Origin: Halalkalibacterium halodurans
Lineage (GTDB): Bacteria; Bacillota; Bacilli; Bacillales; Bacillaceae_D
NCBI RefSeq assembly: GCF_004376175.1
Contig: NZ_SNUY01000038.1
Span: 1 to 32,000 of the forward strand
Direction: 5' to 3'
Length of the DNA stretch: 32,000 nt
Position numbers and translations under genes: made by a program. Shown piece by piece: positions 11,654-17,445 of this stretch; the first letter of the stretch is position 1; the number at the start of each line of letters is the position of its first letter. Below the pieces are notes generated by a model. The model was given only the letters and a program-made list of their open reading frames with translations, was not told the DNA's origin and did not search any database.

Positions 11654-13018
11654 CTATAGATAGGTTGCTAGCGATGAAGCAATCGCAAAATAGAGGAGTA
11701 GACCGACTATGTCATTAATCGTTGTAATGAATGGGCCTGAAGCAACGGTAGGATCTATACGTAATTTATGAATAATGATCGGGATGATTGTGCCCGTCAT
11801 TGTTGAGATGACGACCGTGCCAAAAAGCGCTGTTCCAACGATCAGCCCAAGAGCCATGTTGCCAAAGCCATAAAATTGAGCTAGCAACGCGGCAAAGAGT
11901 CCGCACACGATCCCCATAATAAGCCCGGTCAACAGCTCTCGTTTAATCATTCGTCGACACGTTGGATGTTTCAGCTTTTCTAAGGTTAACTGCCTGACGA
12001 CAACCGCTAATGACTGCGTCCCTGTATTCCCTCCCATATCGGTTATGAGTGGGATGAAAATGGCAAGTAACGCAAGCTGGGCAAGTGTGTCTTCAAAGTG
12101 TTGAACGACGCTTGCAGTCGCCATCCCAAAAACCATTAATAGAAGAAGCCAAGGTAAACGTTTCATTGCTGCTTTGATTGGATGAACTTCTAGATTGATC
12201 GAACCCTTTGCCCCTGCCAGTTCCTCAAAATCTCCGGTTACTTCATCCTCCACAACGTCCATGACATCATCTACTGTCACGATCCCGATCATTTGATTGG
12301 TCTCTGTTGTGACGGGGATCGCGACAATGTCATAGTCACGTATCAGTTGTACAACCTCCCGCTGATCTGTATGGGGAAAAACAGAGATCACGTGCTTTTT
12401 CATTAGCTGTCGGACCGTTTCATGTAATGAAGAGGTTAAGACATCTTTTAACGAGAGGACACCCATCAGTTGATTGTTCTCGTTTACAACATAAAGGTAG
12501 TAGATCATTTCGGCATCTTTGCCCTCGGCGCGAAGCGTTTCGAATACATCTGCCACCGTTTTTTCTTGCTGAATGGTCAAATATTCAGTCGTCATCAAGG
12601 AACCAGCTGTCTTTTTCTCATAAGACATTAAACGCTTGATGGCATGGGCCTCCTGTTCATCCATACGATCTAAAAAATAGCCGGTCAAATGATTAGGAAT
12701 CTCCTCAAAAAAGTCGGTCATATCGTCTGGTGCCATTTCTTCGAACATTTTAATCGTGTAAGACTCTTTCAGCTCTGTGACAATCTGTTTTTGTTGGTTC
12801 CGTTCCATCCCTCTAAATATAGGAGCAAACTCTTTCGGCCCAATCCATTCATACACTCGCTTCCGCTTTTGAACGTTCAACTCCGAGAAAATCTCCACTT
12901 GATCAATAGGATGTAATGCAAGAAAATCATCGCGAAATTTTTCTCGTTCTTGTTCTTTTAAATACATGTGTAAGTAAAAGGTATACTCTTCTCTGTTTTT
13001 GAAGTCCAGCATCATCAT
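11654..13018 (-). CDS. mgtE: Magnesium transporter MgtE
   Basis: 454 aa from ATG 13018 behind AAGGAGG. It has an N-domain, tandem CBS domains (...VVNENNQLMGVLSLKDV..., ...TETNQMIGIVTVDDV...) and a C-terminal 5-TM domain with GNTGTQS. The ORF-track start 13069 overlaps mgtC. Confidence 0.92.
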   Translation of the reverse strand: MMMLDFKNREEYTFYLHMYLKEQEREKFRDDFLALHPIDQVEIFSELNVQKRKRVYEWIGPKEFAPIFRGMERNQQKQIVTELKESYTIKMFEEMAPDDMTDFFEEIPNHLTGYFLDRMDEQEAHAIKRLMSYEKKTAGSLMTTEYLTIQQEKTVADVFETLRAEGKDAEMIYYLYVVNENNQLMGVLSLKDVLTSSLHETVRQLMKKHVISVFPHTDQREVVQLIRDYDIVAIPVTTETNQMIGIVTVDDVMDVVEDEVTGDFEELAGAKGSINLEVHPIKAAMKRLPWLLLLMVFGMATASVVQHFEDTLAQLALLAIFIPLITDMGGNTGTQSLAVVVRQLTLEKLKHPTCRRMIKRELLTGLIMGIVCGLFAALLAQFYGFGNMALGLIVGTALFGTVVISTMTGTIIPIIIHKLRIDPTVASGPFITTINDIVGLLLYFAIASSLATYL

Positions 13019-13037: not shown

Positions 13038-13736
13038 TTACAAATGTTCCACATCAACGGTGAGAACATGGTCGATCTTTTTGATGAGGTAATAAATTTC
13101 CGTCGTATATTGTTTTTCTGGAGCCGATAAAATCAGTTCCACTTGCTGATTACCGTTCTCTAAATCTTTTAATTTCAGATGGCGAATGCGGATGTCGCTC
13201 CCTTTTTTAGCCATGCTCGTTTTTCGTTCAATCGATTGGATTAGTTCCGTCATTCTCATATTCGGCTCCATGACCATCTTGACCGCCACATCTCGTTGCC
13301 GAAGAGAAGAAGGCCCCACTTTTTTCACGAGTTGAGGAAAGACATTTATCGCTAGCATTAAAAGGACTACCATATACCCTGCTTCAATGTAGAAGCCTGC
13401 GCCAACAGCAATTCCTAATCCTGACGCTGCCCAAATCATTGCAGCTGTCGTCAGACCGGAAATGACATCATTTCGTTTTCTTAAAATAACTCCCGCCCCT
13501 AAAAAACCGACACCGCTCACAATTTGCGCCGCTAAGCGCATTGGATCCATATTATTAAACATCGGGGTCGCAAACCTGTGAAACGATTCGACCGACACGA
13601 TCGTTACTAGACAGCTGGCAACACAAATGACCATGCTCGTCTTTAATCCTAAAGGTTTGTGCTTTAACTGACGGTCAATACCAATCAATAATCCGAAAAA
13701 TAATGCGATGCTTAATTTCATTAACAGTTCTGTCAT
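13038..13736 (-). CDS. MgtC/SapB-family membrane protein
   Basis: LLMKLSIALFFGLLIGIDRQLKHKPLGLKTSMVICVASCLVTIV...AQIVSGVGFLGAGVILR...GLTTAAMIWAASGLGIAVGAG is the MgtC signature. A soluble C-terminal domain follows. The start is ATG 13736 or GTG 13745. Confidence 0.85.
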   Translation of the reverse strand: MTELLMKLSIALFFGLLIGIDRQLKHKPLGLKTSMVICVASCLVTIVSVESFHRFATPMFNNMDPMRLAAQIVSGVGFLGAGVILRKRNDVISGLTTAAMIWAASGLGIAVGAGFYIEAGYMVVLLMLAINVFPQLVKKVGPSSLRQRDVAVKMVMEPNMRMTELIQSIERKTSMAKKGSDIRIRHLKLKDLENGNQQVELILSAPEKQYTTEIYYLIKKIDHVLTVDVEHL

Positions 13737-13825
13737 TTCGTTCACCTGCTTTCCTCACTTATGGTTAGAAAAATGTTTTATAGCAAAAACCGTTGTTCGT
13801 CACAAAAGCTAAACTTCCTTAAAGT

Positions 13826-13860
13826 GCAAAAAGCCTACCTTCTACAAATAAAGGTAGGCT
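13826..13860 (-). terminator. Expression-platform terminator of M-box 1
   Basis: Minus strand: AGCCTACCTT-loop-AAGGTAGGCT followed by TTTTTG. The 5' arm can alternatively pair with the aptamer segment AGGTGAGGCT, which would form an antiterminator. Confidence 0.75.
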
Positions 13861-13898
13861 CCCCAAACACACTCATGTTCTATGAGCGAGATTCCCTT

Positions 13899-14047
13899 CA
13901 TTCGTAGAGCTTTAGCACTGTATGGCATAGGACATTGCCAGCTACATTAAAAATCACCTTATGTCGATGATTTCTGTTGACCCATTGGCGTCTCTGGACG
14001 TTTTTGGGCAGCAGCATATCTCCATACAGGAGCCTCACCTAACGAAG
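13899..14047 (-). promoter_or_regulatory. M-box (ykoK leader) Mg2+ riboswitch aptamer, copy 1, controlling mgtC-mgtE
   Basis: The minus strand reads CTTCGTTAGGTGAGGCTCCTGTATGGAGATATGCTGCTGCCCAAAAACGTCCAGAGACGCCAATGGGTCAACAGAAATCATCGACATAAGGTGATTTTTAATGTAGCTGGCAATGTCCTATGCCATACAGTGCTAAAGCTCTACGAATGAAG. As I recall it, this is nearly colinear with the B. subtilis mgtE M-box. Confidence 0.9.
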
Positions 14048-14060
14048 TGGTTGTACGTAT

Positions 14061-14153
14061 TTACTTGTCCGCTATCATCGAAAAGGCAGCGATGGTTACC
14101 GTTGCGCCAATTGAGATAAACATGTTCCCTTGATCATGTGACTCACTGTCCAT
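14061..14153 (-). CDS. Unannotated 30-aa hydrophobic small protein between the two M-boxes
   Basis: GGAGGTG, then 7 nt, then ATG (14153). Translation is MDSESHDQGNMFISIGATVTIAAFSMIADK with stop TAA at 14063..14061. It has one predicted TM-length hydrophobic stretch. It is too short for the ORF track. Confidence 0.5.
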   Translation of the reverse strand: MDSESHDQGNMFISIGATVTIAAFSMIADK

Positions 14154-14192
14154 CTCTTACCACCTCCACTGCTTCTAAGAAAGGGATAGCTC

Positions 14193-14225
14193 AAAAAAAA
14201 TCACCCTCATACGAATGAAGGTGAT
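14193..14225 (-). terminator. Intrinsic terminator downstream of M-box 2
   Basis: Minus strand: ATCACCTTCAT-TCGT-ATGAGGGTGAT followed by T8 (14200..14193). The 5' arm is complementary to the aptamer segment AAGGTGAT. Confidence 0.75.
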
Positions 14226-14351
14226 TACGTCATGTTTCCATTGTTCAAAAAACGAAAGCCTGATGCCAAGACGATCATAAGAAACGCACACTATAATCGT
14301 AAAGATGCCCCTTTATCGGGCATAGCGATGGCAATGGCCACTGTTGTCCCC

Positions 14352-14494
14352 CATTCGTAGAGCTTTAGCACTGTATGGCATAGGACGTTGCCAGCTACAT
14401 TAAAAATCACCTTATGTCGATGATTTCTGTTGACCCATTGGCGTCTTTGGACGAGCAGCAGCATATCTCCATACAGGAGCCTCACCTAACGAAG
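14352..14494 (-). promoter_or_regulatory. M-box Mg2+ riboswitch aptamer, copy 2
   Basis: Same sequence as copy 1 apart from two substitutions and one short replacement (7 nt in copy 1 against 1 nt here, in the GCTGCTGCC-CAAAAA segment). The P1 3' strand differs but can still pair (GTCTTCG with CGAATGGGGGAC). Confidence 0.85.
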
Positions 14495-14521
14495 ACATTT
14501 ATGAAATTTTTTACAACTCAT

Positions 14522-14550
14522 AGACTACATGAAGATATTTTACCTGTCAA
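14522..14550 (-). promoter_or_regulatory. Candidate promoter of the M-box/mgtCE transcript
   Basis: Minus strand: TTGACA (14550..14545), 17-nt spacer, weak -10 TAGTCT (14527..14522). Confidence 0.35.
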
Positions 14551-15915: not shown

Positions 15916-17154
15916 TTACCGAACAAGCTTTTTAAATTTCCGTTTGCCCACTTGTACGATGAGGCCATCCTCTATTTCCACTTGTAACTGGACGTCTTCG
16001 ATTTTTTCACCGTTAAGCTTCACTCCGCCATTTTGCACCATTCGCCGTGCTTCACCTTTTGATGGCAATAAATCGAGGGTCACAAGCAAGTCCACAATCC
16101 AAACAGAGGATTCGCCATCCCACTTCACTTCTGGAATGTCCGTTGGCAAATCTCGCTTTTGGAAGACCGTTTTAAAGTAATTTACGGCTTCTTCAGCTTC
16201 GTTTTCGCCATGATACATTCGAACAAGCGTAGCGCCAAGCTTCATTTTCGCATCGCGTGGATGGACACTTCCATCTTCTAGGCCTTTTGCGATCGCTTTT
16301 ACTTCATCCATTGATAAATCGGTCGCTAACTCATAGTATTTCACCATGAGCTCATCTGGAATCGACATGGCCTTTCCAAAAATCTCATTTGGCGCCTCAT
16401 CAATACCAATGTAATTGTTTAAGGATTTAGACATTTTTCGTTCTCCATCCAATCCTTCGATTAACGGCATCGTGATCGCAACTTGCTTATCGTTTCCATA
16501 AGCTTCTTGAAGCATGCGCCCCATCAGCAGGTTGAACTTTTGATCCGTTCCGCCTATTTCAATATCCGACTCTAACGCTACCGAGTCATACCCTTGCATG
16601 AGCGGGTAGAAAAACTCATGGATGGAAATAGGCTGACCTGACTTGTATCGCTTTTCAAAGTCATCCCGTTCAAGCATCCGAGCGACGGTCATTTGACTCG
16701 CAAGCTTAATGACATCTTCAAAGTTAAGCGCGCTTAACCATTTTGAATTATAATGTAACGTTGCTTTTTCCATATCTAAAATTTTTCCGTACTGCTCCAC
16801 ATACGTCCGAGCATTCGCTTTCACTTGCTCATCGGTTAGCTGCTTTCTCGTCTCAGATTTACCAGATGGATCCCCAATTCGCCCGGTAAAATCCCCGATC
16901 AACATTTGCACCTCATGGCCAAGATCTTGGAATTGTCGCAGCTTATGAAGGACAACCGTATGACCGATATGAACATCAGGGGCTGACGGGTCCATCCCTA
17001 GCTTTACTTTTAACGGCTTACCTGTCCGAACCGACTTTTCAATTTTTTCTCGTAAAGCTTCTTCAGGGACAATTTCCACTACCCCACGCTTTAGAATTTC
17101 AAGCTGTCGCTCCACCTCTTGGGTTTGCTCTGGCGTTAACGCTTTTTCCTCCAC
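15916..17154 (-). CDS. tyrS: Tyrosine--tRNA ligase, bacterial type 2 (TyrZ/Thermus-like) with a C-terminal S4 domain
   Basis: HIGH motif (DVHIGHTV), KMSKS motif, [18 protein letters not shown], and a C-terminal S4-like segment [24 protein letters not shown] start behind AGGAGGAA. Confidence 0.9.
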
Positions 17155-17190: not shown

Positions 17191-17445
17191 TAAAAAAATA
17201 AAAAAACCCCTCCCACATAAGGGACGAGCTTACTCGCGGTACCACCCTTTTTGGAGAAATAGTAGCATTTCTCCCAACTCCAACATGATAACGGCATGCC
17301 CCGTTTCTTCACCAAAATAGCAAAGAAAAAGCTCCAAGCTGTACTTCACGAGTCGCCTTTGTACTGATTTGCACCAACCACCAGCTCTCTTTTTACAGGG
17401 AGACGTTCGCTACTGTCACTCTTCAACGCTCAATATTGATTCCAT
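17191..17445 (-). promoter_or_regulatory. T-box leader (tyrosine specifier UAC) with terminator/antiterminator
   Basis: On the minus strand: an AGAGAG element; a specifier-loop candidate GAAGUACA (UAC is the complement of plus-strand gta 17341-17343, followed by the usual purine); the T-box AAAAAGGGTGGTACCGCG (plus-strand cgcggtaccaccc, 17235-17247); then the hairpin CTCGTCCC/GGGAGGGG and a long T-tract (17206..17191). Confidence 0.85.

Follow-up and report, generated by a model that had tools for sequence, protein, structure and literature searches.

The leader of the mgtC-mgtE operon of Halalkalibacterium halodurans carries, between two M-box riboswitches in series, a 30-codon open reading frame (ORF) headed by a strong Shine-Dalgarno (SD) sequence, located on the reverse strand of the 32,000-nucleotide (nt) stretch of contig NZ_SNUY01000038.1 analysed here (hereafter, the window). 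By comparison with related loci, this ORF is the H. halodurans member of a family of short leader ORFs found behind M-box terminators in alkaliphilic Bacillaceae, a family apparently undescribed so far. The reading we favour, at about even confidence, is that it acts in cis as a translated leader element, which in H. halodurans is possibly partly vestigial. According to this reading, what matters would be that the ORF is translated, and perhaps also how its first ~8 residues behave on the ribosome, and the finished peptide probably would not matter. The ORF probably does not encode a conserved regulator acting in trans on MgtC or MgtE.

The leader ORF and its family in Bacillaceae

The 30-codon leader ORF is real and placed as described by a first-pass annotation of the window, with the following coordinates:

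14061..14153, (-): 30-codon leader ORF, BH3226 allele I27, product MDSESHDQGNMFISIGATVTIAAFSMIADK
14161..14167, (-): Shine-Dalgarno sequence GGAGGTG, 7 nt before the ATG at 14153..14151

The start region reads GGAGGTG-N7-ATG GAC AGT GAG TCA CAT GAT, and a search of the 32-kb window for exactly GGAGGTG-N7-ATG gave this one match, 0.04 being expected from shuffles, in agreement with the near-ideal SD, 7-nt spacing and ATG originally reported. The proposed location, between the terminator of the upstream M-box (M-box 2) and the aptamer of the downstream one (M-box 1), likewise agrees with the coordinates: the ORF begins 39 nt past the terminator T-run, and its stop codon (TAA) is followed by a 13-nt spacer and then by CTTCGTTAGG, the P1 5' strand of the downstream aptamer. 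The description of the peptide as an acidic N-terminus plus one hydrophobic stretch of transmembrane (TM) length was also borne out, the best 17-residue Kyte-Doolittle (KD) mean being 1.98 (residues 11-27) and hydropathy being TM-grade across 17-19 residues, values from which a TM helix is predicted.

Loci carrying mgtC in relatives, comprising seven other genera and one unclassified Bacillus isolate, were taken from a genome collection and by exact-protein look-ups, and their M-boxes were located by Rfam; promoter-proximal M-boxes are here termed A-type and those internal to the operon B-type. The order M-box(A) - terminator - short ORF - mgtE1 - [M-box(B) - terminator] - mgtC - mgtE2 was found in Evansella, Anaerobacillus, Halalkalibacter and Bacillus sp. 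FJAT-45350, and the same mgtE1-mgtC-mgtE2 layout, with a third mgtE, in Desulfuribacillus, while Alkalihalobacterium and Caldalkalibacillus have M-box - terminator - short ORF - mgtE - mgtC. An equivalent ORF lies downstream of 11 of the 12 A-type M-box terminators outside H. halodurans (loci L001, L002, L004, L005, L053, L061, L062, L063 with two copies, L064 and L068), and after none of the three B-type M-boxes. All 11 have a strong SD (GGAGGTG, GGGGGTG or GGGAGTGGTG) at a spacing of 6-8 nt and start 16-69 nt past the terminator T-run with ATG, GTG or TTG, followed by GAT or GAC and AGT (Asp-Ser) and by an acidic/Ser/Pro stretch; ORF length in the family is 29-45 codons. Family N-termini include MDSSPEPDS, MDSYPEPS, MDSGPEPES, MEK-DSGPEPES and MDSDPLSEQ, as well as MDSDSSREP, MDSDSSSS, MDEESSS and MDSSCRCS, with the motif DS-x-PEP-(D/E/S) standing directly after Met in six of the 11 related ORFs.

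The window ORF shares with these ORFs the position, the SD, start, GAY AGT and acidic stretch, and an open frame, here of 30 codons. Moreover, its DNA from terminator to start is homologous to that of FJAT-45350 (L053; blastn E = 8e-6) and of Caldalkalibacillus (L005), which places it in the family. One family feature is missing, namely a stop codon 12-32 nt before mgtE1 and beside an anti-SD/SD hairpin, mgtE1 being absent here; the copy L063a, located between tandem M-boxes, likewise does not end before mgtE1. In the mgtC-derived loci, the motif GGTG-N7-DTGGAYAGT was found at leader ORF sites only, and its remaining matches fell in six loci that had been chosen by a metagenome pattern scan itself. 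That scan, for terminator-SD-ATGGAYAGT, gave 6 matches, all regarded as chance and with no M-box nearby. A search with the family profile retrieved only four hypothetical proteins, sporadically annotated.

The family ORFs are apparently translated, judging from how their sequences vary. The start position carries only valid start codons (ATG, GTG, TTG) across the family, prolines of the PEP motif are encoded by CCC or CCT, a synonymous difference, and 6 nt have been inserted in frame behind the ATG in Halalkalibacter krulwichiae (MEK-DSGPEPES). Four of the ORFs also figure as hypothetical proteins in existing annotations, which points the same way. Openness of the frame gave shuffle p values of 0.016-0.16 per instance and a Fisher p of 5.6e-6 over 10 instances, a figure that is optimistic because the instances are phylogenetically related, their unalignable tails being effectively independent; the other two frames close within 1-19 codons, with one exception. 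The first-pass annotation had regarded a reading frame not conserved in relatives with the same leader as fatal to its proposal, and the frame is conserved in position among them, as regards both start and openness.

This conservation does not extend along the whole ORF. Beyond ~10 codons the family peptides cannot be aligned between genera, and the Alkalihalobacterium ORFs show one change in the first 16 residues as against many changes and indels in the last ~24, a pattern that points to constraint on the initiation region and the N-terminus and not on the whole product.

The tandem M-box leader of the mgtC-mgtE operon

The leader in which the ORF lies and the operon behind it comprise the following features:

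14522..14550, (-): probable promoter, TTGACA (14550..14545), 17 nt, TAGTCT with TG before it, read from sequence
14342..14500, (-): upstream M-box aptamer (M-box 2), Rfam RF00380, 124.4 bits, E = 9.6e-28
14191..14226, (-): M-box 2 intrinsic terminator, AATCACCTTCATTCGTATGAGGGTGATT plus T-run; 12 pairs in the terminator scan, stem 14226..14199
13890..14053, (-): downstream M-box aptamer (M-box 1), RF00380, 149 bits, E = 3.4e-34; P1 5' strand from 14049
~13828..13860, (-): M-box 1 terminator, AGCCTACCTT-tatttgtag-AAGGTAGGCT plus TTTTT, read from sequence
13038..13736, (-): mgtC, 232 amino acids (aa) from the ATG at 13736; longest ORF from the GTG at 13745
11654..13018, (-): mgtE, 454 aa, the mgtE2 of relatives; MgtE_N, CBS and MgtE domains in L043-L049

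With two RF00380 aptamers, each followed by its terminator and with no promoter-like site between the units, the leader is a bona fide tandem riboswitch of one class. The M-box 2 terminator is homologous to the terminators of relatives, and its 5' arm is complementary to the aptamer P1 3' strand (antiterminator); the M-box 1 terminator was missed by the terminator scan because of its 9-nt loop. The consensus scan made no call at 14522..14550, where the promoter of the leader is nevertheless probable, and the arrangement TTGACA-17-TG-TAnnnT also precedes the first M-box in L001, L063 and L068. Between terminator 2 and aptamer 1 (14198 to 14054) the consensus scan found no promoter-like site, so that the ORF would be transcribed only via read-through of the first riboswitch. 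The leader ORF is thus predicted to be made only from low-Mg2+ (riboswitch ON) transcripts, as had been proposed from its position past the M-box 2 terminator. The mgtC product of the window is 100% identical to H. halodurans MgtC/SapB (P0001, PF02308).

The 5' arm of terminator 2 (ATCACCTTCA, 14216-14225) is also complementary to the SD region of the ORF (TGGAGGTGGT, 14158-14167), with 10 pairs, 2 of them G.U, as read from the sequence; this arm could in principle mask the ORF SD in full-length transcripts.

Variation within H. halodurans was followed in eight sequences, the window and L043-L049 (six genome assemblies and one JGI metagenome contig), which all have the same leader and an intact ORF. 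A single polymorphism was detected in the ORF, ATA/ATG leading to I27M, conservative and non-synonymous; with one single-nucleotide polymorphism (SNP) in 93 nt, the ratio of non-synonymous to synonymous substitution rates (dN/dS) is powerless within the species, and Halalkalibacter flavus and Halalkalibacter alkaliphilus, at ~98% identity, are too close for such a comparison. The first-pass annotation had presented the ORF as absent from its ORF track, but the ORF is already hypothetical gene BH3226 (BAB06945.1 / Q9K7Y1) in the original C-125 GenBank record, in the allele ...SMMADK. By exact look-up, neither the window peptide (I27) nor the 235-aa longest-ORF translation of MgtC was on record, and a literature search for tandem M-boxes, M-box leader peptides and the H. 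halodurans ORF retrieved nothing relevant.

Between aptamer 2 and its terminator lies a ~85-nt insertion specific to H. halodurans, which brings the expression platform to about twice the length seen in relatives. Inside this insertion most later H. halodurans assemblies call, instead of BH3226, an antisense ORF of 41-42 aa (MFPLFKKRKPDAKT..., 14232-14360, (+)), which is probably spurious.

Possible roles of the leader ORF

A role in cis is suggested by what lies behind the ORF in relatives. In 8/10 of them the ORF stops 12-32 nt before the mgtE1 start. The mgtE1 SD is closely preceded by the CU-rich 3' arm (TTCTCC, AATTCCT, GCCTCCT etc.) of a hairpin in the 3' half of the ORF, and minimum-energy folding gave this anti-SD arm two alternative partners, a GGGAG-rich arm within the ORF and the mgtE1 SD. 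The passage of ribosomes along the leader ORF might then set the exposure of the mgtE1 SD and hence mgtE1 translation, so that a cis-acting translational control would be layered on the transcriptional M-box switch. In H. halodurans, where mgtE1 is missing, the ORF runs into species-specific, by chance hydrophobic sequence and ends 13 nt before the second M-box. In three relatives, mgtE1 itself stops 8-9 nt before the internal B-type M-box (L061 3214-3225, L062 3234-3245, L063 3235-3247), and termination of an ORF just upstream of an internal aptamer may be a retained feature. The corresponding site of the window is 14049-14063, where the second M-box follows 13 nt past the stop of the short ORF; the internal aptamer always has an ORF ending just upstream.

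Several observations weigh against this cis-acting reading. The presumed ancestral target, mgtE1, is absent from H. halodurans, and the window N-terminus, MDSESHDQ, has no PEP motif. The length of the window ORF is unremarkable alone, as 16% of composition-matched shuffles stay open for 30 codons (p = 0.16), and it is the SD with the start, together with the conservation in relatives, that lift the ORF above chance. The RNA between the aptamers is not more structured than shuffles (fold z = +0.18), and the only Rfam match there is sub-threshold (ncr982, 21.9 bits vs a gathering score of 50). In relatives, the RNAalifold consensus for the anti-SD:SD pairing is weak (-3.9 kcal/mol) and was obtained on an unreliable alignment. 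The tandem M-boxes of H. krulwichiae have no ORF between them, which indicates that an inter-aptamer ORF is dispensable. Moreover, P1 of aptamer 1 would be barely within reach of a ribosome stopped at the TAA. Transcription and translation are uncoupled in Bacillus, which argues against any influence of ribosomes on whether the second riboswitch terminates. A translated element influencing the folding of the downstream aptamer had been offered by the first-pass annotation as an alternative to its micro-protein; it is preferred here because it fits the comparative data better, but, given the short reach of the terminating ribosome and the fold z of +0.18, an effect on the aptamer itself is no more than a possibility.

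Some of the same observations could be read in another way, namely that the loss of mgtE1, or a duplication of the riboswitch unit, put unrelated sequence behind the conserved ORF start. The resulting relic would still be translated via its intact SD, and neither peptide nor translation would matter in H. halodurans. We regard this as rather unlikely, even if the C-terminal two-thirds of the peptide have no homologue anywhere searched, the ORF length is as expected by chance, the PEP motif is lacking, the inter-aptamer RNA has no special structure, the inter-aptamer ORF is lost altogether in H. krulwichiae and the sole polymorphism within the ORF is non-synonymous. Against a relic stand the perfect 7-mer SD at optimal spacing and the 13-nt gap from stop to aptamer, which mirrors the 8-9 nt of mgtE1 in three relatives and hints at a retained geometry; the intact ORF in 8/8 H. 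halodurans sequences points in the same direction, with little weight given the low diversity. Very unlikely, in our judgement, is a wholly non-coding explanation, in which the conservation of GGAGGTG...TGGATAGT would reflect a function of the RNA itself, such as base-pairing with the terminator arm or, as a ribosome-binding stabiliser SD, protection of the read-through transcript against 5'-exonuclease, and the ORF behind it would be incidental. Synonymous sites of codons 2-3 are indeed near-invariant (GAT AGT in 9/12 copies, GAC AGT in 2/12), the window and Caldalkalibacillus (L005) can be aligned over a GGGAAC(C/A)TGTT block whose frame differs between the two, and the SD region is complementary to the 5' arm of terminator 2. 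The near-invariance of codons 2-3 also counts against the cis-acting translated leader, and with it and the GGGAAC(C/A)TGTT block some RNA-level constraint, rather than constraint on the peptide, is possible. An incidental ORF, however, does not account for a frame open over 29-45 codons in every instance (Fisher p as given above), for start positions with valid start codons only, for the in-frame 6-nt insertion and the synonymous variation of proline codons, or for the stop codons placed beside the mgtE1 SD in 8/10 relatives.

The first-pass annotation had favoured a small hydrophobic regulator comparable to MgtR or MgtS. As a conserved regulator of this type, the proposal received no support from the comparison: KD(17) does not exceed 0.45 in any of the 11 related ORFs, which are hydrophilic or mostly net basic, the window peptide alone being hydrophobic. 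The suggested check by tblastn for conservation of the whole 30-aa peptide gave nothing better than E = 2.4 over 42 mgtC loci. No Pfam or NCBIfam entry matched the window peptide at E <= 10, consistent with the remark that no similarity to MgtR or MgtS could be seen, and phmmer against 1.84 billion representative proteins retrieved only BH3226 itself and a spurious repeat protein. The latter (P0126, E = 2.7e-12) is 1820 aa long with ~17 repeats of DDQGNxGIAYGTTVTYGPYPI, whose weak repeat matches were summed, and it was rejected as a homologue. We also rejected, as unsupported, a derivation of the tail from the final TM helix encoded by the missing mgtE1 (IYFSIATALLDYL* vs MFISIGATV), local DNA and protein alignments with shuffled controls giving p = 0.09-0.96. 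Judged from these searches, the hydrophobic tail is a lineage-specific sequence.

What is left of the original proposal is a micro-protein confined to this species, spanning the membrane once and made when Mg2+ is low, which would bind MgtC or MgtE and modulate their stability or activity as an analogue of MgtR and MgtS; we hold it to be decidedly unlikely. TM-grade hydropathy over 17-19 residues, the co-transcription with mgtC-mgtE only at low Mg2+ predicted from the leader layout, and an I27M exchange that leaves the position hydrophobic are all compatible with it. MgtR and MgtS are themselves narrowly distributed, so that lack of conservation is not fatal. On the other hand, the hydrophobic segment is missing from 11/11 homologous leader ORFs, there is neither a family match nor, among the 1.84e9 representatives, a homologue beyond BH3226, and the conserved part is the hydrophilic N-terminus with the initiation region, the opposite of what a TM-helix regulator would predict.

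Comparison with known Mg2+ leaders and minor features of the loci

By sequence criteria, the ORF does not belong to the MgtR, MgtS or MgtL families. The likeness to MgtR and MgtS (YneM), regulators of MgtC and MgtA, is one of size (~30 aa), of a single hydrophobic helix-length segment (in the H. halodurans copy) and of expression with Mg2+ transport genes at low Mg2+, predicted for the ORF here; they differ in that no similarity or family match exists and that the hydrophobic segment occurs in no homologous leader ORF. The location is also different, since MgtR is encoded at the 3' end of mgtCBR and MgtS by a separate gene, while the ORF lies in a leader, upstream of the operon.

The enterobacterial mgtA leader peptide gene mgtL, with mgtM/mgtP of mgtCBR, is closer in arrangement: there, too, the 5' leader of a Mg2+-transporter operon combines a Mg2+-responsive RNA with a short ORF. 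MgtL is rich in D/E/P after Met (MEPDPT), as are MDSSPEPD, MDSGPEPE and MDSYPEP here, and the alternative RNA pairings beside the ORF in relatives could couple its translation to the downstream gene. Yet the sequences are not homologous, neither Pfam nor NCBIfam gave a match, the ORFs here have 29-45 codons vs 17, and mgtL is part of a Rho-dependent attenuator, whereas the present ORF stands past a complete M-box and intrinsic terminator, in a Firmicute. In E. coli, translation of the MEPDPT N-terminus of MgtL aborts at low Mg2+ by intrinsic ribosome destabilisation (bioRxiv 10.1101/2021.02.02.429294), and the criterion of that study (D/E/P among the six residues after Met, small side chains) was applied to the family. 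The window has 3/6 (D, E, D; no Pro) against a composition expectation of ~1/6; L001, L002, L004, L053 and L063a have 4/6 with PEP, L062 and L005 2/6, and L064 1/6, so that D/E/P fill 3-4 of the first six positions in 8/12 copies, including the window. By analogy, the family ORFs might be Firmicute counterparts of MgtL, in which early elongation aborts or slows at low Mg2+ by intrinsic ribosome destabilisation, although we consider this unlikely. The resulting change in how ribosomes pass the anti-SD switch, or approach the second aptamer, would then add a ribosome-based Mg2+ sensor downstream of the RNA-based M-box sensor. If this were true, a single leader would carry two mechanistically different Mg2+ sensors one after the other, a design reached separately from that of the enterobacterial mgtA leader.

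Among riboswitch leaders, the tandem thiamine pyrophosphate (TPP) riboswitches of Bacillus anthracis tenA are likewise a series of two complete units of one class, each with aptamer and terminator; unlike them, the H. halodurans leader has a strong-SD ORF between the units, and its aptamers are apparently homogenised by gene conversion in this strain (see below). The M-box of Bacillus subtilis mgtE (ykoK) belongs to the same RF00380 and has a P1 3' strand complementary to the terminator 5' arm, as here. To our knowledge, no leader ORF has been reported in the described B. subtilis mgtE M-box leader, in contrast to the post-terminator ORF of the present family, and several genera here have a second M-box right after the mgtE1 stop.

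M-box riboswitches are regarded as self-sufficient Mg2+ sensors. A conserved translated ORF behind their terminators would give MgtE, the main Mg2+ channel, a second, translation-dependent layer of control, in parallel to the enterobacterial design of leader RNA plus mgtL and built from unrelated parts. The family accounts for the strong-SD micro-ORF between the tandem M-boxes of H. halodurans, and its comparison cautions against taking the hydrophobic tail for a conserved micro-protein. The 12 natural variants also represent a compact and tractable set for acidic/proline N-termini as ribosome-based Mg2+ sensors outside Proteobacteria.

Tandem A-type M-boxes were also observed before mgtE1 in H. 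alkaliphilus, H. flavus and H. krulwichiae (at L063 931-1861, L068 1134-1918 and the corresponding region of L069), the first two species having an MDS-ORF between the aptamers, with a TTG start and 29 aa. Mg2+ modules have been gained or lost among these loci: H. flavus is without M-boxB-mgtC-mgtE2, H. halodurans without mgtE1, and Desulfuribacillus has three mgtE genes, while mgtE1-mgtC-mgtE2 without an internal M-box is found in FJAT-45350, Desulfuribacillus and H. krulwichiae.

The M-box 2 of the strain analysed here has a private 6-nt deletion and scores 124 bits vs 140-142 bits in other strains. This upstream aptamer differs from the seven other H. halodurans sequences at at least 10 positions, including GTA-T vs GTGCT, ATATGC vs ATACGC, GGCAACGTCC vs GGATGATTCC and GCCATACAG vs GCCGCACAG, and at each differing position the upstream aptamer (14342-14500) is the same as the downstream aptamer (13890-14053) of its own genome, which looks like gene conversion between the tandem aptamers in this strain. 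Elsewhere in the window, a T-box leader (RF00230, 123 bits; 17217-17435, (-)) lies upstream of a tyrosyl-tRNA synthetase gene (15916-17154), an ordinary arrangement.

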